Source: an uncultured Nitrososphaerota archaeon | GTDB taxonomy: Archaea; Thermoproteota; Nitrososphaeria; Nitrososphaerales; Nitrosopumilaceae | DNA: 64,000 nucleotides | Reading direction: 5' to 3' | Assembly (NCBI GenBank): GCA_963824385.1 | Contig: CAWGPD010000001.1 | Coordinates: 192,001-256,000, forward strand | In this document: piece by piece, positions 19,124 to 57,301 of the stretch | How the letters are laid out: each line of letters opens with the position of its first letter | Numbering within the stretch: position 1 is the first letter of the stretch | Notes under the pieces: model-generated | Database searches by the model: none | Seen by the model: the letters and a program-made list of their open reading frames with translations, nothing else | Told to the model about the DNA's origin: nothing | Position numbers and translations under genes: made by a program

Positions 19124-20008
19124 TTATGTCCTATTGTTCACAAACTTTTGGTTTGGATGATATGCTACACCTGCAAACTGTTGGTTTGGATGATATGCTA
19201 CACCTGCAAACTGTTGGTTTGGATGATATGCTACACCTGCAAACTGTTGGTTTGGATGATATGCTACACCTGCAAACTGTTGGTTTGGATGATATGCTAC
19301 ACCTGCAAACTGTTGGTTTGGATGATATGCTACACCTGCAAACTGTTGGTTTGGATGATATGCTACACCTGCAAACTGTTGGTTTGGATGATATGCTACA
19401 CCTGCAAACTGTCGGTGCATGTAGGATGTCATGTCTACAAATCTATGGTCTGTACGCAATGTCATGTCTACAAACTTTTGGTGCATATATGATGTCATGT
19501 CGACAAATCTATGAGGTCCAGAAGTTCCAGAGTATGGAGTAGGTGTTACAGAGTTATTCGGTGTCGAATATACTGGTGCTGAATTAACTGGTGTTGTGTA
19601 AGTATTGTCTGGTGTTGAGTTAACTGGTGTTGTGTTAGTATTGTCTGGTGCCGAATTAACTGGTGTTGTGTTAGTATTGTCTGGTGTTGAGTTAACTGGT
19701 GTTGTGTTAGTATTGTCTGGTGCCGAATTAACTGGTGTTGTGTTAGTATTGTCTGGTGTTGAACTTACAGATGTTGTGTTAGTATTGCTTGGTGCTGAGG
19801 ACGTAAAATTGTTTAATGTACCATTTGCTAACAATGATGTTGAATTGTTTAGCGTTGCATTTATTGGCAATGTGATTACAGATGTCCCATTGCTTTGAAC
19901 ATTGCTTACCTGGGCAAACGCACTGGTTGTTGCAAATGATGCAGTCATTACAACTCCAAGAATTGCCACTAGTGACAAGATTTGGAGTTTGTTTACGTTT
20001 GGGTTCAT
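19124..20008 (-). CDS. Secreted low-complexity protein with two tandem-repeat arrays
   Basis: Signal peptide ending AFA; 12-aa S/T/N/P repeats, then 11-aa QQFAGVAYHPN repeats. Confidence 0.8.
   Translation of the reverse strand: MNPNVNKLQILSLVAILGVVMTASFATTSAFAQVSNVQSNGTSVITLPINATLNNSTSLLANGTLNNFTSSAPSNTNTTSVSSTPDNTNTTPVNSAPDNTNTTPVNSTPDNTNTTPVNSAPDNTNTTPVNSTPDNTYTTPVNSAPVYSTPNNSVTPTPYSGTSGPHRFVDMTSYMHQKFVDMTLRTDHRFVDMTSYMHRQFAGVAYHPNQQFAGVAYHPNQQFAGVAYHPNQQFAGVAYHPNQQFAGVAYHPNQQFAGVAYHPNQQFAGVAYHPNQQFAGVAYHPNQKFVNNRT
19148..19411. repeat. 33-bp perfect tandem repeat x8 (coding, QQFAGVAYHPN)
   Basis: TTGGTTTGGATGATATGCTACACCTGCAAACTG head-to-tail with no spacers. Confidence 0.95.
19573..19800. 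repeat. 36-bp imperfect tandem repeat x~6 (coding, PDNTNTTPVNS[A/T])
   Basis: Repeated TTAACTGGTGTTGTGTTAGTATTGTCTGGTG with alternating A/T variants. Confidence 0.9.
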
Positions 20009-42664: not shown

Positions 42665-42671
42665 TGGTACA
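42665..42671 (-). promoter_or_regulatory. TGTACCA motif upstream of the TATA of the pentapeptide gene
   Basis: 37 nt from the ATG at 42628. Confidence 0.6.
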
Positions 42672-42856
42672 ACTATCGAAAATAAATTCCAATTCCAATT
42701 TCATGGAATATACCATACTTGTGTAATTATATTTGCAAGGAGAAATCTGCGAAAGATGTTTAATTTAGGAAATAAAGTCTACAAACATACTGGTACTAAT
42801 TTCAATGGTACTTGTTGAAAAATAAAAAAGAATTGGTTATGGTAAAAAAATAGTTT

Positions 42857-43894
42857 TTACCCAATTACGTTCATAAATCCAGTGGCAATAGAGAACGTTG
42901 ATGTGTATCTTTCGTTGTTTTTACTAAGATCTACAGTCGTGAGCACTTGTGTTGACAAGAGCAAAGTCAGTTACTCCATAAGGATTTGCCGACTCTGTTG
43001 TTTGTGCAGGATGACCATTATTATCTCCCATGTAAGGAGCGTCTGCATCTGTTTTCAAACCAATGTCAAAGTGGTATACGCACATGCCAAGTGTTTTGGG
43101 ACTTGATATGTGATTTAGATACTGCATTGTTGATGCCTCCATTGTAAAGACTCCTCCGTCTATGATTCCTTGATAGAGTCTAAGGTCTGGAGTTCCATCT
43201 GATTCACACGGTAATACCATTGCCATGTGTCCATGGGTAGTGTACCAAGGTGTGGTATCTGCCAAGTCCAAGAATGTGCCAGGCTTTAGGGATTACTCCT
43301 GCAAGATGGAACCATTCTTCAGTTGGGACTCCACCATTTCCAGGTAGAGACGATAGTCCTGCTGATGGGACGTTCCATCCATCAGTGTAGTTACCTTGTG
43401 TGTAACCTCTTACTGGTGCAACATCACAGTCGCCATAGTATCCTATTCCATTTTGCACCCAACATGGATGATTTACATCCAATCCCATCATGTTTGGATA
43501 GTTCATGTTAACTATGCCTACATCCATCTCCATCAGTGGTATTCTGCTGGGCACACCATCCTGTAAATGATGAAGCTTGCAGTACAGAGGATGGCGGGTT
43601 GTTTGGATATGATGCCATGTCGTAGATGAATGTGTCTCCAGGACCTCTTGTTGGTGAGTCTGATGGTAGAGTTGTCATCATACACATGTGAGGATTTCCA
43701 TTTAGACCAGTTGTGAAATAACTTGGTGGCGGTGCTGTCGTAGTCGGTGGATTAAATGGTGTTGGTGCTGCGATATATGGTGCTTGAAAGCCATATGCAG
43801 AGGTCATTGTCTGACCAGAACCTGCCATTCCCAATCCGACTATTACTGCAATTGCCACAATTGCAGTCGTCGATTTTCGTTGTTGAAAATTCAT
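42857..43894 (-). CDS. Secreted Met/His/Cys-containing protein (split by ~3 frameshifts)
   Basis: Signal peptide; successive ORFs join; DLADTTP...GHMAMVLPC...MCVYHFD. Confidence 0.65.
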
Positions 43895-43930
43895 TAAATC
43901 TCTTGTTGATACTTTTTATTTTAAACATTA

Positions 43931-43937
43931 TGGTACA
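43931..43937 (-). promoter_or_regulatory. TGTACCA motif upstream of TATA
   Basis: 37 nt from the ATG at 43894. Confidence 0.6.
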
Positions 43938-44070
43938 AAAGTAGAATGATTTTTTGCATTGCTGCCAGTAAAAGTTACTGTGTTATCGGCACAATCAATT
44001 AATTTGTCTGACATTTGCAAGGACAAGTCTTCGAAAGACGTTTAATTTACCAGATAGAGTCTAAGATTGT

Positions 44071-45183
44071 TTGAAAAAATATCTTGGATTAATTCTGGTA
44101 GGAGTTTTGGCAATACAGGTGCTGAGTATCTCCCAAGTGTTTGCAGTATACCCATGCGATAGCCCATACTGCCCATATACTCCACCTGGTTTTCAAACGG
44201 AGGACTTTAAATTAAAATCAAATCCTGTCATATGTGAAATAGAGCCAAATGATACAAGATTTCCAAATCTTGCACAGACTGTAATCACTACAACTCATCA
44301 AGCTGTAAAAAATTGGACAACTCTTCTAAACAGTGATGCTGAAAAAAATTCCACATGGGATATAGATGAGATAATAATTCCTCCAGGTGATAAGACAAAT
44401 CTAGACCCTGCATGCAACATTGCCATCGTATATGAAAGTCAGGAGCTTGACTATTGTGGTCAGGTGTTTAATGGAGTGTATTTTCCCTGCGGTCAAATAT
44501 TTAATGGAAAATCAATTCTCAATCCAGATATAGGGACTTCTCTTATTCTCATCCCATATCTTATGCCAATATACGGCAAGCAGTGTGAATATGAAAAAAA
44601 TGGCACCGTCTATGATTCCATATGTCGTTCCCAGCAAGAGATTGAGAGTCATTCAAGTCTTTTGAAAGCAATCCAGCACGAGATGGGCCATTCCATGGGG
44701 CTTGGACATTTCATTGCAAACTCGCAAGACGAGGTGGACAGGTGGTTTGCAGGAACTCAATCTGTTCCGTCTATAATGGTCTCAGGACAAGAGGGATACA
44801 TGGAGTATGCCAAAGTTACTCCACTTGATGCAAGCCAAGTTCGGGACATATATGGAAAAAATGGATTTAAAGAAATTAGTACGGTGGACGTACAGAATTC
44901 ATCCAGTCTTAGATTACAAATTCAATCACATGTTCCATCATGGATAAAAAATGTGACAGATTTGTGGTTGCAAGAAAAGATTACTGATTTGGAATTTGAG
45001 GACTGTATAAAATATCTCCCATGGCAGGGAGTAATTTCAATTCATAATACCATACCTTCTTCATCGATGATACAAGAGATTCCTTCATGGGTTAAAGACA
45101 TTGTAAAATGGTGGAGTATTGGTCAAACTGACGACACTTACTTTACAAGCATAGCACAGTGGATAATACAGACTAGAGTATGA
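44071..45183 (+). CDS. Secreted matrixin-like (metzincin) zinc metalloprotease with two PxWxK C-terminal repeats
   Basis: HEMGHSMGLGH; SIM Met-turn; VPSWIK/IPSWVK. Confidence 0.85.
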   Translation: MKKYLGLILVGVLAIQVLSISQVFAVYPCDSPYCPYTPPGFQTEDFKLKSNPVICEIEPNDTRFPNLAQTVITTTHQAVKNWTTLLNSDAEKNSTWDIDEIIIPPGDKTNLDPACNIAIVYESQELDYCGQVFNGVYFPCGQIFNGKSILNPDIGTSLILIPYLMPIYGKQCEYEKNGTVYDSICRSQQEIESHSSLLKAIQHEMGHSMGLGHFIANSQDEVDRWFAGTQSVPSIMVSGQEGYMEYAKVTPLDASQVRDIYGKNGFKEISTVDVQNSSSLRLQIQSHVPSWIKNVTDLWLQEKITDLEFEDCIKYLPWQGVISIHNTIPSSSMIQEIPSWVKDIVKWWSIGQTDDTYFTSIAQWIIQTRV

Positions 45184-45389
45184 AATCATCCCTTTTTAAA
45201 AGAAAATATACCCAATTTGGAACCAGCATTTTAGTATCATCCATTCAATGGTCAAAAAATATACCACTATTGTATTTTTAGTTAAACCCTGGCAGAGGAT
45301 GCTAGTCATATCTGCCAGAGTCATCGTTATGATGAACAACGATACACTATGTTTAGACATAATCATACTTGTTCAAATAATAAAGAGAT

Positions 45390-45412
45390 TGGTACATTCA
45401 TCTATTGTACCA
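45390..45412. promoter_or_regulatory. Palindromic operator TGGTACA-N9-TGTACCA
   Basis: Perfect 7-9-7 inverted repeat. Confidence 0.75.
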
Positions 45413-45495
45413 TAAATTTTCAAATAGAATAATAGAGTTACACAGTCAAAATATACATTAAACTAAAATAATAAAAAATAATTTCCAGAATAGAA

Positions 45496-45582
45496 TTAAT
45501 TTTTGTCTCTTTTTAGAAACGAAAACCATTTTCTTTTGGGTTTTTCTTTAGGCATAGTAGGTTGTTTGTCTTCCATAAACAT
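45496..45582 (-). CDS. Candidate 28-aa basic peptide
   Basis: MFMEDKQPTMPKEKPKRKWFSFLKRDKN directly downstream of TATA and the operator at 45611. Confidence 0.35.
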   Translation of the reverse strand: MFMEDKQPTMPKEKPKRKWFSFLKRDKN

Positions 45583-45610
45583 AATGTGGTTTTAATTTTA
45601 ATAACATCGT

Positions 45611-45633
45611 TGGTACATTCGGTAATTGTACCA
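45611..45633. promoter_or_regulatory. Palindromic operator TGGTACA-N9-TGTACCA
   Basis: Perfect 7-9-7 inverted repeat. Confidence 0.75.
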
Positions 45634-45805
45634 GACTTGTTTTATCTCACAACATATTATCTTCCAATAACTGGAATGTCATAGCCATATTTGCCATCGA
45701 GTAAATTGCTATTCATAAATGACATTCCAGTATATTTTTTTAAATATCGGAGAACAAAAAATTATTTCCCATTGTTTCAAGATATTAATTTTTATTTTTG
45801 TAACA

Positions 45806-45828
45806 TGGTACATTTCTCGATTATACCA
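45806..45828. promoter_or_regulatory. Palindromic operator TGGTACA-N9-TATACCA
   Basis: 7-9-7 inverted repeat with one mismatch. Confidence 0.7.
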
Positions 45829-45949
45829 TTTTCCTTATTACGTCATATGCATCATTTAAGATAAGGACGACAAAACCACGCCAGACCATATCGAGCCATG
45901 TGGTTCTCGTCTTTTTTTATTTTACAAAAAATTAGTGTTCAAGTCCAGA

Positions 45950-46423
45950 TTAGTGGACTATCACAACAGGGCAAGGAGAATTCTCCAGTACATGACGGCT
46001 GACACTTCCAAGAATTTTTATTTTATTTATGCCTCGCAGTCCCTGGCTGCCCATAATTATGAGACCATTTTTGTTTGTTCTTGGCATGATCAAGTATGGC
46101 TTTAGCAGGATTGTCTGATACTACTTTGTAGCTTGCCTTTACGCCCTTATTTTGGCAATATGCCTCACAATCTTGCATAAATCCATGGGCTTCGCTTACT
46201 GCCTTTTTTGCAAATTCATCAATTGCCTTGGATGCACTCTTGCCTTTGATTGCACCTGAGAGAACTACCCCCGCAGGTCGTGCCGTAGATGCACTCACAG
46301 ACTGCTAAGAGTTCAATCTCAGAATCAAGTCTTTTGGAGATCTCGATTGCTTCGTCTAGTGCTCTTTTAGAATACTCTGAATCCATCCAGTGGAACAAGT
46401 ATGCTAGAATAACTTTTTACCAT
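45950..46423 (-). CDS. Universal stress protein (several frameshifts)
   Basis: YSSILVPLDG..YSKRAL.EA; PAKAILD; IMGS.G; LGSVSRHVLENSPCPVVIVH pieced across frames. Confidence 0.75.
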
Positions 46424-46489
46424 AAACTAAAGTCAAGTTTTAGTCTATTATAAACATTGAAGAATATCATTTTTGATAATATAAAAAGG

Positions 46490-46792
46490 CTAGTTTTGTT
46501 GCTTGTTTCGTGTAATTGCAATAACTGCAATTACAATACCTGCAATGCCAATACCAATTCCAGTCATGCTTATCATGTATAGTGTATCAATACTATTCTT
46601 TACGTCCTGGAAAGATTGTGCCACATGTGAATAACTCTGGGCAGCACTATTGGCAGTATTTTTTGCATCGTTGATTTCGCCAGTCAGTTGGTCTATAACA
46701 TTTTGTGATGTCTGTGCAGATGCATGATGAATCAAATTAGACATTCCAACAAAACACAATGCAAGAACAAAAGTTAAAATTATAATTTTCAT
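46490..46792 (-). CDS. Exported coiled-coil protein with C-terminal TM anchor
   Basis: Signal peptide; C-terminal GIGIGIAGIVIAVIAI; TGTACCA motif 38 nt upstream (46830). Confidence 0.75.
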   Translation of the reverse strand: MKIIILTFVLALCFVGMSNLIHHASAQTSQNVIDQLTGEINDAKNTANSAAQSYSHVAQSFQDVKNSIDTLYMISMTGIGIGIAGIVIAVIAITRNKQQN

Positions 46793-46852
46793 GTGTTATC
46801 AAAAAACGCCAATTTTCTTAAATATGTTTTGGTACAAGATCAAAATAAAATC

Positions 46853-47496
46853 CTAAAAGTTAAGAAAACCCCTAGTCTTTGCAGTCACTGCAATTACACT
46901 TACTATAGCAATTACAAGAACTAGTGATGCAATAGGACCAAATTCTGGTACTGCATTGTTTGACATGCTAGATTCATGTTGCCAGACATGTTCATCGAAT
47001 TTGTACTAGTCATGTTCATGGCATTCATGCTACCAGACATTGGTGGAAAATAATAACTGTCCTTGGCTTCAACTTCTTGCATTGGATATGTAGTAGATGG
47101 AACGGCTGTTCCGTTTATTGTACCCTGAATTATAACATTATAGGTTCCAGCTTGTGAGGGTATCAGGGCAGAGACATACAGTCCTGGAGTGTCATCACTT
47201 GCCTCAAAGTCTAGAGTCTTTGTCTGACCACCATATTGTATAGTGACAGTCATGTTGTTTAGTGCATTACCAACAATGGGTGCTGCTTGGTCAGTAGTTC
47301 CGTTATACACGTAGACGTCAACCTCATTCAAGTCTCCAACAAACGGCGGTTCATTTAACCAGCCTATTTTTACCGATAAATTTGGTGAAAAGTTCTTTAG
47401 GATATGTGCCTCTGCTGGATGAATAGCATACGGACCAACAATAACTACAACCAAAGCAAGTATAGCTGGGATTATTATTTTTCTATTCATGTCCAC
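46853..47496 (-). CDS. YtkA-like Ig surface protein with predicted mature His1, Met-rich linker and PEFG-CTERM (frameshift near 46970)
   Basis: AEA|HILK; GW.NEPP; PGLY...IP...GTY; MSGSMNAMNM...; the other frame gives VPEFGPIASLVLVIAIVSVIAVTAK. Confidence 0.8.
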
Positions 47497-47508
47497 TTGT
47501 CTCCATTA

Positions 47509-47967
47509 TCAAGGAAAGTTATACTTGTCCTTGGCTTCAACTTCTTGCATTGGATAAATGGTAGAGGGAATGGTCACTCCATCTATGGTTCCTTTGATTA
47601 TGGTATTGTATGTTCCAAGTTGTGTTGGAATTACAGCTGCACTATACAATCCAGGTGTATCATCACTTGCATCAAAACTGAGTACCTTGGTCTGACCACC
47701 ATATTGTACGGTTATGGTCATGTTATCAAGACCGTTACCTGCAATTGGAGGAGCAGAGTCATCAGTGCCGTTGTAAAGATAAACATCAATCTGATTTGTA
47801 TCACCAACAAGCGGAGGTTCATTCTCCCAGCCGATTTTTACTGAAACATTTGGTGCAAAGTTCTTCAAGATGTGCGCCTCTGCTGGATGAATAGCATATG
47901 GTGCAACAATAACTGCAACTATCGCAAGTAAGACTGGAATGATAATTTTTTTGGTGTTCATTTTCAT
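47509..47967 (-). CDS. Tandem paralog of the YtkA-like His1 protein, without Met-rich tail or anchor
   Basis: Highly similar to the 47496 gene up to YPMQEVEAKD.Y.FP, then stop. Confidence 0.85.
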   Translation of the reverse strand: MKMNTKKIIIPVLLAIVAVIVAPYAIHPAEAHILKNFAPNVSVKIGWENEPPLVGDTNQIDVYLYNGTDDSAPPIAGNGLDNMTITVQYGGQTKVLSFDASDDTPGLYSAAVIPTQLGTYNTIIKGTIDGVTIPSTIYPMQEVEAKDKYNFP

Positions 47968-48005
47968 AATTAGTAAATATGCCGAATATTTGAATATATA
48001 GATTA

Positions 48006-48052
48006 TGGTACAACCCCAGAATACCGCAAAATTCTGTTTTGCGTTTGTACCA
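48006..48052. promoter_or_regulatory. Divergent promoter region with outward-facing half-sites TGGTACA (48006) and TGTACCA (48046)
   Basis: Each half-site lies just upstream of a TATA box serving the 47967(-) or 48101(+) gene. Confidence 0.65.
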
Positions 48053-48100
48053 ATAGGATATTAAATTTTAAATGCATACCAAGGAGTAGAATGTTGTATT

Positions 48101-51082
48101 ATGAGTTTTAAAAGTAGCATGTCGTCAAAGCCTTCAAATAAAATAATTTTTTCAGTATTTGTCTCATTGTTTATTTTGGCAATAATTTCAGGCATTCCAA
48201 AATCATATGAACACGCATTTGTCATAGACAGCAACCCCGCACCTGCTACATCAGTAAATACAGTTCCAGCACAGATTGAGATAGAGTTTGTCGACCCAAT
48301 CGACATGCGATATAGTCAGATCAAGGTATTGGATTCAAACGGCAAGGCAATACAAAATAATGATTGGCATTTTTTAAATGACGAGCATACAAAGACTGCA
48401 GTCACCCTTCCACCTGATACTCCAAATGGCATTTACACAGTTTACACCAAAGTACTTGATGCGACAGACGGTCATACAACTACAAATGCATTTGTCTTTG
48501 CAATAGGACAGCCAATACCTGCAAGTCTTTTGAATGCAAAAACAAACATTAGTTTTGCAGATATCGTATCCATTCCAGATAGCATTGCAAGATACCCGAC
48601 ACTTTTAGGACAGATAATTGTCGTGGGAGCTGTCTTCTCAACATTTTGGTTATGGAGACCAGTTTCTAGAATTCCTGCATTAAATGATGCAACAAAATTA
48701 ATGCGCTCAAAGATCGACATGAGCACAACCAAGATTGTACTGATTGGTTCCATTATAATTCTGATAGGAGATGTAGCAATGATTGCATCTGAAGCTTCGT
48801 CAATAAATTCCGGCATACTAGAAGCAATGGGCACTACATTTGGAAATTTATGGATTGTAAGAATGGTACTATCATTAGCATTGTTTGGAATTGCTTTATC
48901 GTTATACCTTAAACAAAAAAAATCAAACACAAATTTATCAAAAGGTCAGATAATTATTTTATTTGCATTAGGAATTGCAGTACTTACCACTACTACTTTG
49001 ATAAGCCATGGTGCGGCAAGCGGTAAGTTAGCTGCTGCGATACTTGATTTTGTACACAATGTGGTAGCATCATTATGGATTGGAAGTGTCATTTACTTGG
49101 CATTTATTGCAGTTCCGCAATTAAAAAAAGTACAAGACGAAAAAAGCAGCATGTCAGTTTTGTCATTAATCATACCCCAATTTTCTACAATAGTTGTTGC
49201 ACTTTTAGGGTTAGTAGTTATCACAGGGCCGTTTCTGCTCTATGTACTTGAGAACAATCTTTCATTGACTCTAGCATCAATATACGGTGAGATTCTCATC
49301 ATCAAACTCTCACTGGCTGCCGCAATGATAGGAATCGGGGCTTTTAATCAGAATGTAATTTACAGAAATGCGCTCAAAGCAGTAATATCATCACAGATTA
49401 CGAAAGGTTCCACAATGCCCAAGGATTACGAGGCTAGAAGTACAGGAAGTTCAGTTCTTGCCAAGTTTAACAAGAGCATAAAGATCGAGGCAATGATAGG
49501 GCTGGCTTTGATTGCATCAATTGCAGTATTGGCAGATTCTGGACTTCCAGCTATTCAATTCCAAGATGAATTAGTACAACAGCAACAGCAGATTCCGCAT
49601 GTCTTTGCATTTACCCCACTGGAGAGCCTAGTTCAAAACAAGTTTACCGAGACAAGTTTTACAGATAATGGAAATATCATACTAACTGCAGACCCGTTCT
49701 TTGCAGGACAAAATAATATTACAATATCATTTGTGGATTCAAAAAATAATCCAATTGATATCAACTCTACAAAGATTACACTAAACCAAGTAGACAAGGG
49801 AATTGGCCCAATTGCAGTCAATGATGCAGTAAAGATATCTCAGGGAGTATTTTCTGTCAACACTGCAGCTCTTGCAATACCGGGACACTGGGAAGCACAA
49901 GTAGAAGGATTAACAACAACAACTGGCGCACTAAACGTTGTTACAAACTTTAATGACCTATATGTAAAACCAAATTTGAATCAGCTTCAAGCCAACATAA
50001 CTGAATTCAAATTGCCAGACAGCAAGGCCTTGCCGCTATATCCAACTTTTGATGTCATCAGAAATGCAATATGGGTTGGAGACTCTGAAATTAACAGTGG
50101 AAGAATATGGGAGTTTAATCTAGGCTCTAAACAATATACAGAGCACAAAATTAATGGAACCAATATCATCACTGGAACTGCAATGGACTTTGAGAACAAC
50201 GTATGGTATATTGATCCCATAACAAAGATTGTTGGACAATACATGCCAGATGACAAGACGGATAAGAAATATCACATTCCAGGAAATGGTACAGTATCAG
50301 GAATTGTTGTAGACAACTCAGATAATATCTGGTTAACGGTATCAAGTACTAGCGAGGTTCTAAAACTAGATACAAAAACAAAGACATTCCAGTCGATAAA
50401 GTTGCCAGATAATTCTGTGCCACTTGGTATCTCAATTGACCAGTCAACAGGTCAGGCATGGGTAGCAGAGAGTGGCTCTGGAAAGATTGCAAACATAGAT
50501 CCTGCACAAAACTACAAGATTACAGAGTACACTCCATTTAACAGCACACTTGCAAGTCCTACTACAATATTATTTGATTCAGTAACTAACCAGGTCTTTG
50601 TTTCAGAACATGACGGCAAGGCAGTATCATCTTTTGATCCGTTGCTCAAGAGTTTTAAAAAATACAACACAGACCCTCAAGGCTTACCGTTTGGCATGGC
50701 ATTTGATCCAAATCATGATCTATGGTTGGCACAGCACACTCTAAACAAAGTAGCAGTTATAGATACAAGAACTGGCAAGTATGCCGAATTTAACATACCA
50801 ACTCCATCATCATTTACGCAATGGATAACAGCTGACTCGCAAGGTGACATGATAATAGCAGAGCAACGTGCAAATGCACTTGGAATAATCACCACTAGTC
50901 TAAAGCCAGGATTTGTTGAAAATACCGAAACAAGTACAACGTTAGGGTTGCAATTAGGAGTAGGATATGCAGACGTGGCAGGTCCTGCAATTGTAGCAGG
51001 GCTAGTAGGTGTGGCCTTTTTCTATACCAAGAGTGTGATGGATCTCAGGGGCAGTATAAAACAGGTAAAGAAAAACTATTAG
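48101..51082 (+). CDS. Copper-uptake/resistance fusion: CopC + CopD + YtkA-like Ig + Vgb-like beta-propeller + C-terminal TM
   Basis: HAFVIDSNP...DGH (CopC); SHGAA, DFVH...SLWIG, YG..L.IK (CopD); GQNN.TI.F..PGHWE; propeller blades. Confidence 0.9.
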   Translation: MSFKSSMSSKPSNKIIFSVFVSLFILAIISGIPKSYEHAFVIDSNPAPATSVNTVPAQIEIEFVDPIDMRYSQIKVLDSNGKAIQNNDWHFLNDEHTKTAVTLPPDTPNGIYTVYTKVLDATDGHTTTNAFVFAIGQPIPASLLNAKTNISFADIVSIPDSIARYPTLLGQIIVVGAVFSTFWLWRPVSRIPALNDATKLMRSKIDMSTTKIVLIGSIIILIGDVAMIASEASSINSGILEAMGTTFGNLWIVRMVLSLALFGIALSLYLKQKKSNTNLSKGQIIILFALGIAVLTTTTLISHGAASGKLAAAILDFVHNVVASLWIGSVIYLAFIAVPQLKKVQDEKSSMSVLSLIIPQFSTIVVALLGLVVITGPFLLYVLENNLSLTLASIYGEILIIKLSLAAAMIGIGAFNQNVIYRNALKAVISSQITKGSTMPKDYEARSTGSSVLAKFNKSIKIEAMIGLALIASIAVLADSGLPAIQFQDELVQQQQQIPHVFAFTPLESLVQNKFTETSFTDNGNIILTADPFFAGQNNITISFVDSKNNPIDINSTKITLNQVDKGIGPIAVNDAVKISQGVFSVNTAALAIPGHWEAQVEGLTTTTGALNVVTNFNDLYVKPNLNQLQANITEFKLPDSKALPLYPTFDVIRNAIWVGDSEINSGRIWEFNLGSKQYTEHKINGTNIITGTAMDFENNVWYIDPITKIVGQYMPDDKTDKKYHIPGNGTVSGIVVDNSDNIWLTVSSTSEVLKLDTKTKTFQSIKLPDNSVPLGISIDQSTGQAWVAESGSGKIANIDPAQNYKITEYTPFNSTLASPTTILFDSVTNQVFVSEHDGKAVSSFDPLLKSFKKYNTDPQGLPFGMAFDPNHDLWLAQHTLNKVAVIDTRTGKYAEFNIPTPSSFTQWITADSQGDMIIAEQRANALGIITTSLKPGFVENTETSTTLGLQLGVGYADVAGPAIVAGLVGVAFFYTKSVMDLRGSIKQVKKNY

Positions 51083-51171
51083 AATAAATTTTTAATTAAA
51101 GAATTTGTCAAGTATAATTTTTTGTACAAAGTTCTTTAAACAATTTTTTAAAAATTAATCTAAAGACTCTG

Positions 51172-52158
51172 CTATCTGAACTTGGGCAGAGATCTTGCAA
51201 TAACAATTACAGAAACAAATGAAAGTATCACAAGCAGGAGAGGCATTGGAAACTCTGGTACTGCAGACGTATTTGATATTAATGGAATATTTAATCCAGA
51301 TATAAAATTAGGATGTATCTGCTCATGCACTATCATCATTACATCATCTCCGGATTGTTTTGTGTTGATATCTTGCTGTAATTGGCCAAAAGCAGTTTCA
51401 ATCTTGACAAGATAAGGAGATGCACTTGGCGGAGCCATCGATTTTACGTTTTCAAACATGGATTGAGCTGCAATTTCGAGTTGTTGAGAACTTTGATATG
51501 CTGGAGCATCAACAATCGTCATCTGAGTTCCTGTCATACTACCAGAACTTCCCATGTTCATTCCTGACATACCTTTCATTCCTGACATACCACTCATTCC
51601 AGACATGCTACCAGAACTTCCCATACTCATGTTATTCATATTCATATTTGCCATATTAGTGAGATCTTCTTTTGAGCCAATTGCATCAGCATAATCTATT
51701 AGTACTTGATTTAGGACATCAAGTGTTGCAAGAGATTGTATAGTTGCATTATTTTGCACAGAACTTGAAATTTCTGAAGCTTCGACTTGATCCAAAAGTT
51801 GATTCAGTACAACTGAATTTTGTGATGCAATAGTGAGGTCAGGGTTAGCACTGCCAGACATGGAATACAAATTATTAATTGCCGATGAAAGACTATTAGC
51901 CAAAGTTGCGTTTTGTTGAGTAAGTGTATTCATTTCATTTATCCCCCAATATTCTTGACTTTTTGAAATATGCCAGTTGGCAGTTTTACTGTCAGAAATA
52001 CTATTAGCAATAAGAGTTGATTCTACCTTGAATTCTTGGATTTTTGCAATAAGATCTGCATCGGAATTTTTTACAAAATTATGAGCAAATACAGGATGAA
52101 CAAACATCATTCCCACAAGTCCAATTACCATTAACGATACAACAATTTTCTTTGCCAA
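51172..52158 (-). CDS. Surface protein with predicted mature His1, Met/Gly/Ser-rich loop and PEF-type anchor
   Basis: VFA|HNF; MANMNMNNMSMGSSGSMSGMSGMSGMKGMSGM; MMIVHEQIHP; VPEFP + TM. Confidence 0.85.
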   Translation of the reverse strand: MAKKIVVSLMVIGLVGMMFVHPVFAHNFVKNSDADLIAKIQEFKVESTLIANSISDSKTANWHISKSQEYWGINEMNTLTQQNATLANSLSSAINNLYSMSGSANPDLTIASQNSVVLNQLLDQVEASEISSSVQNNATIQSLATLDVLNQVLIDYADAIGSKEDLTNMANMNMNNMSMGSSGSMSGMSGMSGMKGMSGMNMGSSGSMTGTQMTIVDAPAYQSSQQLEIAAQSMFENVKSMAPPSASPYLVKIETAFGQLQQDINTKQSGDDVMMIVHEQIHPNFISGLNIPLISNTSAVPEFPMPLLLVILSFVSVIVIARSLPKFR

Positions 52159-52195
52159 ACTATGACAGTATATTCAAAATAATATTAAAATGTAA

Positions 52196-52242
52196 TGGTA
52201 CAATCTTCGAATATTACAAATTTTAGCCTCAATCTTGGTACA
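52196..52242. promoter_or_regulatory. Two TGGTACA half-sites (52196, 52236)
   Basis: The first is 38 nt from the TTG start at 52158. Confidence 0.55.
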
Positions 52243-52349
52243 GCATTTACACCCATATCCACAATCCTTGGATTAATCCCAATCCACTTGTCTTGATTGT
52301 GGCATATTTTTTGTACATCATACATAATAATAAGGAAAAAAATAATGTG

Positions 52350-52493
52350 ATGGTAATGAAAAATCTTGTATGTGGAATGGAAGTAACCGAAAAGAAACAC
52401 ATGACAAAATACAATGGAAAAGACTTTCTCTTTTGTTGTGCCCATTGCAAAACAACTTTTGAAAAAAATCCAAAGCAATTTGTTAAAGAATAA
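52350..52493 (+). CDS. Stand-alone YHS/TRASH metal-binding domain protein
   Basis: LVCGMEV...YNGKDFLFCCAHCK..FEKNP. Confidence 0.85.
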   Translation: MVMKNLVCGMEVTEKKHMTKYNGKDFLFCCAHCKTTFEKNPKQFVKE

Positions 52494-52683
52494 CATTGAG
52501 GGTCATCATCCATCACGATGTTGTTTCTTATTTGACTAGAGAGAGACATCTCAATCATATGCTGCAATAACATTTGCAATAAATACACATTTGTTGTACA
52601 ATGAAGATTTACTTCATAGTTCAAATTCAAATACGATATCCTCCTATGATATTTTTATACAAGTTATGCGAAGAAGAGGTGAG

Positions 52684-52935
52684 ATGGGTCACCACAGCCT
52701 TGCTGATAACATAATGATGCTTGTGATGTCAGTTGCAATGCTTACAATGGTAATGTCAATGTTAATCATGGGAGTCAATTGGTCCATAGTACTCCTAATT
52801 CTATCAGGAGTATTGACAGCTGTAACAACTGTCTTTTATTCATTCCAGTCTGCCAGATGTATGTGTGGAACCAATCAATACAATAAGCAATCAAACAAAG
52901 CGATATCTGACGCTACATGTGATTGTCCTAAGTGA
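52684..52935 (+). CDS. Small Met-rich 2-TM protein with CxC motifs
   Basis: MGHH...IMMLVMSVAMLTMVMSMLIMG; CMC and CDC in the tail. Confidence 0.6.
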   Translation: MGHHSLADNIMMLVMSVAMLTMVMSMLIMGVNWSIVLLILSGVLTAVTTVFYSFQSARCMCGTNQYNKQSNKAISDATCDCPK

Positions 52936-53082
52936 AAAATGATGAATAAATATAGCACATGCGATTCAACGATATAACATTTGTAAGTCAAGAAAAAACT
53001 ACATGATGTAGATATTCCAGTTTTAAAAAATGGTACCATCCCAGGAATTTTACTAAATGAGGAGTAATATCAAACATCAATG

Positions 53083-53178
53083 TCATTGTACTTTTGTGTC
53101 AAAGTTAGTATCTCCAGAATATTTTGCAGAAAGTGTATGAGTTCCAATCAATAATGACGAGGAGGACATTGTAGTCAT
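53083..53178 (-). pseudogene. Remnant of a bacterial Ig-like (Big_3-type) domain gene
   Basis: SSLLIGTHTLSAKYSGDTNF matches the GTH.ITA.YSGD.NF signature. Confidence 0.45.
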
Positions 53179-53203
53179 ATGAGTACTAGTTCGAATCGGA
53201 GTG

Positions 53204-53599
53204 TTATTTTCTCCTTTGACTAATTATAACCCATGCAAATGGAATTCCTACCAGACATGCTGTGAGCATAGTCATCCATTCCAAAAAAATGGGTATTTTT
53301 TCATTTGAAGATATTCCCAACCTGTCAGACATTTCGCGCATACCAGACATGTTGGACATACCAGCCATTCCATGCATACCAGACATGTTGGACATACCAG
53401 CCATTCCATGCATACCAGACATGTTGGACATACCAGCCATTGTCTCACTTGATATCATTTTAATCGAGTATGCAGAATAGTATTGTTCAGCATTTACTGT
53501 ATGAAGTTGAGAAACTAATACAAATACAATACCTACGAAAATGATCGAAAAAAGACCAAACCAAACACAGGCCAAGTTTTTCTTTAACATAGAGGCCAT
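53204..53599 (-). CDS. Membrane protein with Met/His-rich tandem repeat (MAGMSNMSGMHG)
   Basis: Two TMs flanking Met-rich repeats; TGTACCA motif 40 nt upstream (53639). Confidence 0.75.
   Translation of the reverse strand: MASMLKKNLACVWFGLFSIIFVGIVFVLVSQLHTVNAEQYYSAYSIKMISSETMAGMSNMSGMHGMAGMSNMSGMHGMAGMSNMSGMREMSDRLGISSNEKIPIFLEWMTMLTACLVGIPFAWVIISQRRK
53339..53441. repeat. 36-bp tandem repeat x~2.8 (coding, Met-rich)
   Basis: CATACCAGACATGTTGGACATACCAGCCATTCCATG. Confidence 0.9.
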
Positions 53600-53714
53600 T
53601 CGTAACACTCGTTTATTTCTTTTAGAAATTAAAATCAGTGGTACAATCCACGAATGAATTACCAAAATTGAGAATCAAGGACATGCATATCTATGGATTT
53701 AAACAATAAACAAT

Positions 53715-53822
53715 ATGACACATTGTAATTGTGGAGCTAAACATGAAACTACTTGTAGTTGTCAAAAAACTGGCAAATGCGACTGCGGCAGTAGTTGCAC
53801 CTGCAAAGATTGCAGATGTTAA
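53715..53822 (+). CDS. Metallothionein-like peptide (35 aa, 10 Cys in five CxC pairs)
   Basis: Not in ORF track; MTHCNCGAKHETTCSCQKTGKCDCGSSCTCKDCRC; no aromatic residues; 71 nt upstream of copA, same strand. Confidence 0.8.
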   Translation: MTHCNCGAKHETTCSCQKTGKCDCGSSCTCKDCRC

Positions 53823-53893
53823 TCAAGCAACACGTGTTCACAGCAAGCCAAGTAATGAGGTTAAAATATTCTTCTTTTTTAGAGTGAGCTAGA

Positions 53894-55999
53894 ATGGCGC
53901 GAGACCCCATATGTGGAATGTTTGTAGAGGAAAAAAATGAGTCATTAAATTTTGAAACAGATGGAAGAAGGTATTATTTTTGCTGCAAAAGCTGCCTAGA
54001 CGAATTCGCCATGCCAGAAAAAGAACTCAAAAAACTAAAGAGTCATGTCGTACTGGCTATCATTTTAACAATTCCCACAGTTTTGCTAACATATATCGCA
54101 ATTATACCTCACCAATTAAACCCCTACGTACTTTTTGCATTAGCAACACCAGTCCAGTTCTGGCTCGGTTGGAGATTCTATCAGGGTACATATGATGCAT
54201 TCAAGCACAAGATGACTAACATGGATGTCCTAATCGCATTAGGAACATCCACCGCGTGGGGATACAGCACTGTCATAACTTTTGTGCACAATGTAGTACC
54301 AATGGCAGATGTATACTTTGAAACATCTTCAGTCATAATCACGCTTTTGTTAATTGGAAGATTACTTGAGAGTAAGACCAAGACAAGAGCATCAAAGGCT
54401 GTAAAAAAACTACTGGATCTTAAACCAAGATTTGCTCATGCCATAAAAAATAATCAAGAGGTAGAGGTACCAGTTGAGCAAGTACAACCAGACGATATAA
54501 TCATAGTTCGTCCAGGGGAAAGAATACCTGTAGATGGAACAATAATTGAAGGAAGATCGTCAATAGATCAATCTGCGATAACAGGTGAGAGTATCCCAGT
54601 AGAAAAAGAAGTTGGAGATGATGTCATTGGAAGCACCATCAACAAAGAAGGCGCATTCAAATTCAAAGCAACCAAGGTAGGAGACGAATCTGTCTTATCG
54701 CAAATAGTAAAGCTTGTCGAGGATGCAAAATCAAGCAGGGTTCCGATACAAAAGCTTGCTGATAAAATATCATCATATTTTGTACCACTTATAATTACAA
54801 TAGCAATAATTTCTGCACTGGGGTGGTTCTTTGTAGGTGGAATTGGCCTTACTTTCTCAATTCTTGCATTTGTTTCAGTAATAATAATTTCTTGTCCATG
54901 TGCGCTTGGAATTGCAACACCTGCAGCTCTAATGGTAGGAGCAGGCAAGGCTGCAGAAAACGGCATCCTGATAAAGGGTGGTGAAAATCTTGAAAATGCA
55001 AGAAAGGTTCAGATTATAATATTCGACAAAACCGGGACTTTAACCAAGGGAATTCCTTCTGTTACTGATGTTGTGACTATAAACGAGATGAACAGCGATG
55101 AGATATTACGCCTTGCCGCAATTTCAGAGAAAAATTCAGAGCATCCCCTTGCAAGAGCTATAGTAAGACATGCAAAAAAAACAAATCTCGTAGTTTCAGA
55201 TCCAGATTCGTTTAAATCCATCACAGGTAGTGGAGTTGAAGCCCAGTACGGAGATCATCAGATATTGATAGGAAATAGAAAATTCATAACAAATAACGGC
55301 ATTACAATTGATGAAAAAATGGAGAAGAAGATTCAGGAATTTGAAGAAGGCGGAAAGACTACAATCATCATATGTATTGACAAAAAATTATCAGGAATAA
55401 TTGCAATGATGGATACGATCAGTGACAACGCACTAGAAGCCATACAGAGGCTCAAAAAGAATGGAATTCAAGTAGCAATGCTTACAGGAGACAACACAAA
55501 GATTGCCAATGCAATAGCAAGTAAACTTGGAATAGACCGAGTTTTCGCAGAAGTATCACCTCAAGAAAAAGAGAACGTCATAGCAAAAATAAAGCAAGAA
55601 GGAAAGACTGTAGCAATGGTGGGAGATGGAATCAATGACGCCCCCGCACTTGCAGCAGCTGATTTAGGAATAGCATTTGGAAGTGGAACAGATATTGCAA
55701 AGGAGACTGGAGGGATTATACTTGTCAAAGATGATTTAAGAGATGTTGTAACAGCAATAGAGCTAAGCAAGAAAACTGTTGCCAAGATTAAACAAAATCT
55801 TGTACTGTCATTTGTTTACAACTCGGCATTAATTCCAGTTGCAGCTGGCGCACTTGTTCCAATATTTGGCCCTCATGTGTACATGATCTTGCCGTTTCTT
55901 GCAGCTGGCGCAATGGCAACAAGCTCCATAACGGTAATTAGTAATTCCCTATTATTGAACAGGTACAAACCAATGAGACAGAGGTTAGAAATAAAATGA
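53894..55999 (+). CDS. copA: Cu(I)-translocating P1B-type ATPase with N-terminal YHS domain
   Basis: [45 protein letters not shown] and MxxSS P1B-1 motifs. Confidence 0.95.
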
Positions 56000-56172
56000 T
56001 CCCAAAATCCATTTTATTGATACGTGAAACTTCATATCATAATTTTAGGAGAAATATGTCAACTCAGATCTTTACTGCATGGGCGCACTCTCCATACAGC
56101 AAAGAGCAGAGCAGAATGAAGTCAAATCATTATGCAGTATCAATACCACGTCATTTTACAAGATAAAGAAAT

Positions 56173-56195
56173 TGGTACATTAGTCGAATATACCA
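56173..56195. promoter_or_regulatory. Palindromic operator TGGTACA-N9-TATACCA
   Basis: 7-9-7 inverted repeat; a further TGTACCA at 56243 precedes the TATA of the 56284 gene. Confidence 0.7.
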
Positions 56196-56283
56196 TGTAT
56201 GAAGATACTTTGCTTCATACCATGAATGAGCCATTCTATAGTTGTACCAGTTCGTTTAAATTTCTAAAAAGCGTAAATTTACT

Positions 56284-56676
56284 ATGCAGAAAGAAAGCCA
56301 TCTATTGGAAAATAGGCCAAAGCTTTTTACCATAATCATTTTTTCTGTAATCGCAATTTTTGCAGTACCAGTAATACTTCCTCATGTATTTCACGAATTT
56401 CAAGTCTTCCACATACTACTCCACTTAAGCGGAGTTGCAATAGCCAGTTTTCTTACCATAGTTTCTTCAGTAGCATATGCAAGAATTAAAACAAAAAGGC
56501 TAATGTTTACAATGATAGCATTTGGCTTATTTGCAGTTGCAGAGGTATTCTCAGTCATCGATGCAGCATGGCAGTATACTTATTATTTCGGGTCCGTCTC
56601 AGCAGATGAGGTAGGACATATTCTTGAATTATGCACATTGGGGATGTTTGCATTGAGTGTGTTTAGGAGAGATTAG
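56284..56676 (+). CDS. 4-TM His-containing membrane protein, co-transcribed with a regulator
   Basis: PHVFHEFQVFHILLH; EVGH; 1-nt gap to the wHTH gene. Confidence 0.8.
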   Translation: MQKESHLLENRPKLFTIIIFSVIAIFAVPVILPHVFHEFQVFHILLHLSGVAIASFLTIVSSVAYARIKTKRLMFTMIAFGLFAVAEVFSVIDAAWQYTYYFGSVSADEVGHILELCTLGMFALSVFRRD

Positions 56677-56677
56677 A

Positions 56678-57175
56678 ATGGATAGAAGTATAGAGATCAT
56701 AAACATTGTAGAGAAAAATCCAGGGATAAAGTTTCGAGAGATTATGAGAGAGTCCGGACTGAAAAATGGAGTTCTAAGTTATCACGTAAGAAAATTAGAA
56801 GAGAGTGGTAGTGTAAAGATAGATAGAAAGTCAGGAGAGACCCGATTTTATCCCCTTTGCGTTACAGATGAAGAATCAAATCTTATAACAAGTCTTAGGC
56901 GAGACACTCAAAGATATATTTTATTATCTTTGCTTGATGGTAAATCACTTGCATTTAATGAGATAGTTTCGAAAGTCAGAAAATCACCTTCGACTGTTTC
57001 TACATTCCTTGGAAGACTTGTTGATGATAACATAGTGGAAATTAAGATCGTGGGATTAAAGAAAGTCTACTTTTTAAAAAATACAGACATGGTTCGTGAG
57101 ATAATTGAAAAATACAATCCAATTCTTCTTGAAAGAACTGCATACAACTTTGCAGACACGTTTGCAAACCTTTAG
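56678..57175 (+). CDS. Double winged-helix (ArsR-like) transcriptional regulator
   Basis: NPGIKFREIMR..GLKNGVLSYH...LE; second HTH FNEIV....KSPSTVS..L..L. Confidence 0.85.
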   Translation: MDRSIEIINIVEKNPGIKFREIMRESGLKNGVLSYHVRKLEESGSVKIDRKSGETRFYPLCVTDEESNLITSLRRDTQRYILLSLLDGKSLAFNEIVSKVRKSPSTVSTFLGRLVDDNIVEIKIVGLKKVYFLKNTDMVREIIEKYNPILLERTAYNFADTFANL

Positions 57176-57301
57176 GAATTACAACTCACAATTTACCATG
57201 CAGTCACGTATTATGCAATAATTGTACCATAATACTAGATACGAGTAAATGAGAAACTACTCACTATTTATTTAGAGTCAAAGGATAAAACTCAATCAAA
57301 T

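Follow-up and report, generated by a model that had tools for sequence, protein, structure and literature searches.

Metallothionein (MT) domains are regarded as polyphyletic and convergent in the portion of the literature cited here (PMC9781358), and a review published in 2013 says outright, in the section cited, that "MTs are absent in archaea" (PMC3600143). Several described systems bear comparison with the archaeal locus considered below. The fungal family-8 Cu-thioneins, represented by Neurospora crassa MT (1t2y) and Agaricus bisporus MT, are short, single-domain proteins of 26 residues and seven cysteines, whose pattern is given in an excerpt as X2-CXC-X5-CXC-X3-CXC-X2-C (PMC4755600). 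An excerpt of another source puts the load of seven-Cys fungal MTs at about 6 Cu, and that of nine-Cys beta domains at Zn3/Cd3 or 4-10 Cu(I) (PMC13107397). Vertebrate MTs (mouse MT-1, 1dft; fish MT_nc, 1m0j; human MT-1A, 9q7p) have two domains and about 20 cysteines, with nine in the core of the beta domain. In bacteria, the copper protein MymT is controlled by a CsoR-type sensor, and SmtA has a Cys9His2 ligand set. The part of PMC7558416 used here reports that MymT binds about 6 Cu(I) and that BmtA, which has a zinc-finger fold, handles Zn/Cd. MT genes of Oscillatoria are co-regulated with a P1B ATPase. In the archaeal cop cluster (CopT/CopR - CopM/CopZ - CopA) a small metal-binding gene of the HMA/TRASH kind stands before copA, and the sections cited of a study of N. 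viennensis name only Csp, CopZ and CopA for copper handling and never mention metallothionein (PMC7785015).

A short cysteine-rich gene next to copA

The window analysed here is a 64,000-nt stretch of the genome of an uncultured Nitrosopumilaceae archaeon (assembly of 1.68 Mb, 86% complete). Its KdpB- and MgtA-like ATPases suggest that the genus is probably Nitrosotalea (compare PMC4836417). Within it, an open reading frame that we call type A runs from ATG to TAA and encodes 35 residues (3.7 kDa), with ten cysteines (28.6%) at positions 4, 6, 14, 16, 22, 24, 28, 30, 33 and 35, in spacings of 1, 7, 1, 5, 1, 3, 1, 2 and 1. It has two histidines, no aromatic residue, no Ile, Leu or Val and no visible signal peptide, and ends 71 nt before the copA ATG (Table 1); translation thus reproduced each of these features that the original prediction had listed (length, Cys and His content, lack of aromatics, distance to copA). 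Its five CxC pairs are the maximum among the 13,220 small ORFs of the genome, and a strict 7-Cys pattern has a single occurrence in the genome, with none in eight simulated versions of it (third-order Markov). The frame had also been called unannotated, and gene callers did overlook it: the exact peptide is absent from about 15 billion predicted proteins, where the adjoining CopA is present. A word-indexed protein search with a 46-aa orthologue gave no match, an HMM search of 1.84 billion representative proteins gave one (a cluster of four), and Rfam gave none over 52,000-56,500.

Table 1. Features of the MT-copA region, as positions in the window
Feature	Position	Strand	Remarks
CopC-CopD-Vgb fusion, core of the copper island (about 42.6-58.9 kb)	48101..51082	+	domain scan; island box sites
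Stand-alone YHS mini-gene	52350..52493	+	shares 80% identity with the YHS domain at the C-terminus of DsbD-YHS
Divergent Met-rich membrane protein	53204..53599	-	internally deleted derivative of the DsbD-YHS fusion
Copper-limitation-type box TTC-N5-TTGTACCA	53639..53654	-	40 nt before the ATG of the divergent gene; opposite strand relative to the MT
Palindrome ATTATCA-N4-TGATAAT, 2 mismatches	53658..53675	.	centred 48 nt before the MT start
TATA position of orthologues (-28 to -21)	53687..53694	+	degenerate/weak in the window genome; putative function
Type A MT-like gene	53715..53822	+	core CxC-x3-H-x3-CxC-x5-CxC-x3-CxC-x2-C; nine Cys and His invariant; a tenth Cys ends the window copy
T-tract (53872-53880), then Shine-Dalgarno-like element (53882-53888)	53872..53888	+	before copA
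CopA, P1B-1 Cu(I)/Ag(I) ATPase with N-terminal YHS/TRASH	53894..55999	+	only such ATPase found in the assembly
His-rich membrane protein (56284-56676) and double winged-HTH regulator (56657-57175)	56284..57175	+	HTH_24, HVO_0163-like

With E<1e-13 as the criterion for orthologues, type A was found in six of the genus's 63 genomes (the unpublished G239 among them) and at 10 of 14 metagenome loci; a sample of 300 further genomes from the phylum had none. Plasmids gave no match, and none of 22 candidates in viral contigs was confirmed. The analysed set comprises 14 copies, seven from five genomes and seven from six metagenome contigs; near-duplicate contigs (L098, L100, L105), G239, four database proteins without DNA and the L106 copy were left out. 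In the last (L106:1324-1428) a TGA stands in frame in place of a Gly codon, through decay or assembly error.

In all 14 copies the MT-like frame is the sole one that stays open, at lengths of 35-46 aa, and nine cysteines, one histidine and six Gly/Ala/Lys/Ser positions are invariant, the loop residues being G, A, H, G, K, G and S. Conservation of the ORF in relatives, on which the original prediction hung, was thus borne out. Variation falls on all 30 third codon positions, as against 13 of 30 first and 12 of 30 second positions, and each of the nine Cys columns uses both TGT and TGC. Mean uncorrected pS is 0.70 versus a pN of 0.12 over 91 pairs; for the window copy against the 13 others the ranges are 0.75-1.18 and 0.18-0.25. 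The frame at 53715-53822 is a real gene under purifying selection. Its tenth cysteine, completing a final CxC, is kept in three copies, shifted in two and absent in nine, where His-rich tails replace it.

Comparison with known metallothioneins and a wider cysteine family

The peptide has the makings of the class: it is small, has about 30% Cys and no aromatics, and its CxC cysteines are conserved under selection across the 14 copies. By anatomy and context it appears to resemble a Cu-thionein, while none of the MT family models searched matches it. Pfam and NCBIfam scans of the window peptide returned no family at E<=1, and PF00131 had no match at that level in the five type A genomes; two orthologues gave sub-threshold matches to PF12749 (E 0.11-0.16). 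PF02069, for which a control passed the cut-off in 1 of 14 genomes, had no match in any of the five, which agrees with the claim that the pattern is unlike that of SmtA/BmtA. PDB searches returned mouse, rabbit-type, fish, human and Neurospora MT domains, none of them significant (E 0.031-8.6), MTs making up three of five and five of eight matches listed. The nearest named clusters in a language-model comparison are also MTs (0.84), which is a lead only.

Particular likeness to the vertebrate beta domain had been proposed. The last four CxC pairs of the window copy do align Cys-for-Cys with mouse MT-1 beta and fish MT_nc beta, eight cysteines without a gap, and these domains, with nine core cysteines as in type A, are the best PDB matches (E 0.031-0.33). 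The spacing therefore holds for the window copy, but the closing CxC-x2-CxC, and with it the eighth matching Cys, is found in only 3 of 14. Type A is moreover a single domain of 9-10 cysteines with no counterpart of the alpha domain, and it has an extra Cys pair at its N-terminus and an invariant His. A special vertebrate link is not supported, since what is invariant, the last seven cysteines CXC-X5-CXC-X3-CXC-X2-C of all 14 copies, is the fungal family-8 pattern, and the best eukaryotic MT reaches only E 0.031. Fungal family-8 proteins also have small spacer residues in one short domain; type A is longer, with two to three more cysteines, carries CxC-x3-His in addition on its N-terminal side and ends in a His/Cys tail that varies, and its match to 1t2y is non-significant (E 2.4-8.6). 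Window peptide and fish MT have 5 of 11 non-Cys core residues in common, chance-prone Gly/Ser/Lys/Thr spacers that are no better than the mean of 4.3 of 11 between type A and a bacterial family described below. Because no similarity to eukaryotic MTs is significant, convergence is the default explanation of the likeness.

The prokaryotic systems compare in other ways. MymT, likened here by description, was likewise a small, originally unannotated Cys-rich ORF tied to copper resistance, and on present analysis is the closest "works like" precedent, although no CsoR-type sensor was seen at the window system. SmtA and BmtA also combine nine Cys with His, and Oscillatoria offers a gene pairing comparable to MT-copA, while the lack of aromatics and of a PF02069 match sets type A apart from BmtA. 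As in the archaeal cop cluster, a small gene with putative metal ligands precedes copA, but its product has no HMA or YHS/TRASH domain.

Type A is one of three nine-Cys types (A, B and C) in Nitrosopumilaceae. A DNA pattern for CxC-x5-CxC-x3-CxC, used only within this family because simple repeats swamp the matches elsewhere, occurs in all 139 of its genomes, with controls mostly empty. Among 21 translated loci, 13 hold type C, a core gene for an acidic product of 44-48 aa that keeps a constant position unrelated to metals; in five the same CxC module ends a membrane protein of about 400 aa, and in three it forms repeats in a large secreted protein. Type C, together with its membrane-protein fusions, lies at G000:C4:502960-503100 (-) in the window genome, at L019:6961-7101 and at L152-L158 and L138-L148; some members bear the automatic database name "metallothionein 4". 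In five genomes type B is part of the same copper island; in others it lies beside an HxlR-type regulator locus, near a 112-aa protein with a Cys-rich N-terminus (type B loci: L111:8211-8324, L112:7444-7557, L113:7173-7280, L114:7384-7500, L115:4688-4795, L117:7263-7370, L097:1539-1652, L116 and L118). In L097 a duplicated, inverted promoter is common to types A and B. Searched with a combined profile, all 80 genomes taken from the order's other families came up empty, against a positive control of 5/5.

Farther afield, in a Vicinamibacteria order, 18 of the 78 genomes encode an uncalled eight-Cys look-alike of 35-38 aa, beside a YHS-CopA at 5 of 19 loci (Pfam check of two) and often immediately 5' of it; its loci are L085-L096, L107-L110 and L197-L215, some near Cus/Czc-type genes. 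These peptides are a candidate new bacterial metallothionein family, their likeness being biased by discovery through patterns built from type A. Mean identity over the 11 non-Cys core positions is 6.2 within type A, 4.5 between A and B, 4.3 between A and the bacterial peptides and 1.4 between A and C. A phylogeny of 22 peptides, built on 43 columns, sets types B and C and the bacterial family apart, with 12 of 19 inner branches open; it does not place them relative to type A, and we therefore propose no direction of transfer. Could the CxC-x5-CxC-x3-CxC module be one ancient mobile MT domain, homologous to fungal Cu-thioneins and the vertebrate beta domain, kept as a universal core gene in Nitrosopumilaceae, with copper-island offshoots there and copies in Vicinamibacteria next to a pump of the same kind? 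That would be improbable.

The copA neighbourhood and its promoter region

The window CopA is intact (701 aa), passes TIGR01511, copper-translocating P-type ATPase, with 608.6 bits against a cut-off of 397, and carries CPC, YN and MxxSS motifs, which we take to be the P1B-1 Cu(I) signature. Synteny with copA, which the original prediction proposed to follow across relatives, was found: copA or a copA remnant lies within about 1 kb of 13 of the 14 type A copies. Nine copies stand directly 5' of the start of a YHS-type copA (frameshifted in two cases), two stand 5' of an HMA-type copA (one with an intervening ABM gene, the other frameshifted), one is the first of a tandem pair near copA and one is downstream of it. 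The fourteenth is on a 1.8-kb contig without copA, and in G239 the distance is about 23 kb. The linkage persists through change of pump type, duplication and rearrangement; as the genomes are kin from one genus, it amounts to fewer than 13 independent events. Type A is an accessory, dispensable gene, since copA exceeds the cut-off in 40 of 63 genomes of the genus versus 6 of 63 for type A, and at least 34 genomes have copA without it. The frameshifts of downstream copA in G339, L103, L104 and L111 (after 9750) reflect decay or assembly error. Between copA and a downstream MT copy, L049:8701-9003 and L106:843-1145 encode a 100-aa His-rich, coiled-coil-like protein of no Pfam family.

Around the MT-copA unit, the window has a copper island that also encodes an HTH regulator, Met-rich proteins, a YHS mini-gene and a fusion of CopC with CopD. 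In several relatives a DsbD-YHS fusion faces the MT; in the window this gene is deleted and split into a Met-rich N-terminal part (-) and a YHS part (+), with an unrelated membrane gene, 52591-52935 (+), between the two. No HMA domain was found in the window assembly, and neither HMA/CopZ nor a Csp-type repeat, which leaves room for a copper buffer. Full-length HTH-TRASH regulators (CopT/CopR) were not found in any of the five type A genomes, and among the loci listed such a regulator flanks 14 of 26 MT-less copA loci versus 0 of 4 MT-bearing ones. The regulator at 56657-57175, with its His-rich partner, is a candidate sensor/regulator for the island box described next. In the equivalent island of another Nitrosopumilaceae genus sits a 602-aa signal-peptide protein with 58 Cys in MT-like repeats (L149:5551-7359 (-), L150, L151). 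Elsewhere in the window, at about 19131-19442 (G000:C1:211131-211442), the minus strand of a short tandem repeat would read as a repeated CxC peptide and is probably the antisense of a repeat-containing gene.

Two conserved elements lie between the MT and the divergent gene. The first, a TGGTACAA-type (GTAC) box, has 11 sites at 42665-57229 of the window, mostly 35-40 nt before start codons; seven of its eight exact genome-wide sites are inside the 17-kb island, box pattern and island limits having been chosen after the sites were seen. With a matrix trained on the loci of other genomes, 8 of the 10 top sites fall in the island. The reverse complement of the box matches a motif that stands, according to the cited part of the N. 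viennensis study, before genes induced by copper limitation (PMC7785015), and the copy at 53639-53654 has 0 mismatches in its 11 core letters. In the published orientation the box precedes seven ATG ORFs genome-wide, all of them in the island. As a copper operator of the MT itself it was rejected: all seven of these cases face another gene, and before the MT the box faces the divergent one. The same part of that study reports some motif cases on the opposite strand (PMC7785015), so the box may still affect the MT. What had been predicted as a copper-buffering MT of an ammonia oxidiser is conserved, selected and tied to a Cu(I) ATPase, but the copper-limitation box of the region faces the opposite gene.

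The second element, ATTATCA-N4-TGATAAT, stands with at most two mismatches in front of 12 of the 14 type A copies, its centre between -47 and -50, as against 7 of 1,876 ordinary ORFs. All 14 near-perfect sites in the genome are outside ORFs, while spacer controls gave 3/4 outside ORFs for a spacer of 2, 0/0 for 3, 0/4 for 5 and 0/4 for 6. Of the genes 3' of the 14 scanned sites, seven have CBS domains and one is Usp; the palindrome is common to CBS/Usp/M50 genes, not to copper genes. The sites in the window genome are G000 C1:4023, 13864, 25430, 30329, 50140, 61839, 162566, 221265 and 238471, C3:179691, C4:10677 and C5:110, 10972 and 11545, and besides CBS-domain, Usp and M50 protease genes the element precedes P-type ATPase genes. 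Before the MT it is probably an activator site common with CBS/Usp genes, and would mark a stress-type regulon that places MT-copA under a broader stress regulator. The arrangement suggests back-to-back promoters, with copper-starvation genes read one way and MT-copA the other. Downstream, a T-tract and a Shine-Dalgarno-like element recur in 9 of 10 copies that stand directly before a YHS-copA start or remnant; presumably the former could be a partial terminator and the latter the ribosome site of the downstream cistron.

Proposed function and significance

The gene very probably encodes a true archaeal MT, whatever its origin. That it is a Cu(I)-buffering MT co-transcribed with copA is the reading we favour, and we consider it likely, at a level of confidence below that for the MT assignment. 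The MT would be a cytoplasmic, single-domain protein, most likely the leaderless first cistron of the MT-copA unit. Its nine invariant thiolates may fold around a small d10-metal cluster, probably of 4-6 Cu(I), with His or the tenth Cys as optional extra ligands. Its role would be to buffer copper in the cytoplasm, with CopA exporting Cu(I) to the pseudo-periplasm; owing to the T-tract before copA, short MT transcripts could outnumber those that read through. The unit, back-to-back with copper-starvation genes, would be switched by the general stress-type palindrome and not by CopT. The purpose could be detoxification or the supply of the cell's many cuproproteins; CopA types of both the detoxifying and the cuproenzyme-feeding kind exist, according to the portion cited of PMC7558416, and MT-copA, lying as it does in a starvation island, might also serve to store copper and deliver it. 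We infer in this proposal the transcription and co-transcription, metal binding, Cu preference, stoichiometry and inducing signal.

An MT devoted to Zn/Cd, or to general thiol/redox buffering within a stress regulon, its link to copA being due to shared islands or regulation, is an unlikely but substantial alternative. Nine Cys would suit an M(II)3Cys9 cluster, the invariant His and the His-rich tails of 9 of 14 copies recall the SmtA ligand set, the MT-facing palindrome is the one of CBS/Usp genes, and a cation-efflux (CDF) gene precedes the G339 copy. A single CDF neighbour among 14 copies, however, stands against 13 that adjoin P1B-1 Cu(I) ATPases; the invariant core is a known Cu-thionein pattern, and similarity to BmtA is lacking. 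More improbable still is a chaperone-like relay that hands Cu(I) to CopA, at its YHS domain or its membrane site, in place of CopZ/CopM. The chaperone position directly 5' of copA in 9 of 14 copies and the invariant loop residues would fit it, as would the failure to find an HMA domain in three of five genomes, all three with a YHS-CopA, but type A also accompanies HMA-type CopA and occurs in tandem and downstream. The peptide has no HMA/TRASH motif, and its 9-10 Cys exceed the needs of a metal transfer site, for which far fewer suffice.

That the peptide is a small structural zinc-finger or disulfide peptide and forms no cluster is highly improbable. Tiny zinc-finger proteins are plentiful in archaea, as an excerpt of PMC11241148 has it, and the related core type C module is also a domain of a membrane protein. 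The archaeal micro-proteins of that excerpt, however, carry two C(P)XCG (CxxC) motifs (PMC11241148), whereas type A has no CxxC/CPxCG knuckle, no hydrophobic core or visible signal peptide, a persistent copA linkage and no confident fold, though an AF2 model (pLDDT 55.7, pTM 0.19) from an alignment of six sequences is weak evidence. A functional family with a poorly expressed or decaying window copy can be all but dismissed: palindrome and TATA position are degenerate there, the adjoining DsbD-YHS gene is deleted and split and the related L106 copy has its in-frame TGA, but the frame is intact with all ligands, synonymous change is saturated and the copA 3' of it is whole.

The Cu(I)-buffering MT thus favoured would matter in a group that relies heavily on copper enzymes and whose intracellular copper handling is little known. 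A search of the full-text literature, with most subscription journals outside its coverage, found no archaeal MT, the few joint mentions of MTs and archaea that were read being incidental, in line with the statement in the original prediction that none was known to have been characterised. The reach of the finding is limited by the confinement of type A to a few genomes of one genus and by the automatic "metallothionein 4" label already attached to the related type C. Among the MT-like types seen, type A nonetheless has the clearest metal link, and is the best-contextualised candidate for an archaeal copper metallothionein. A peptide of 35 residues can be synthesised and assayed in weeks, which makes the question of an archaeal MT directly testable, and type A is a test case for convergence versus descent of CxC-x5-CxC-x3-CxC across three domains of life. 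If the ancient-module reading were true, type A would count as the first metallothionein of archaea and, though prokaryotic, as kin to the eukaryotic MTs.
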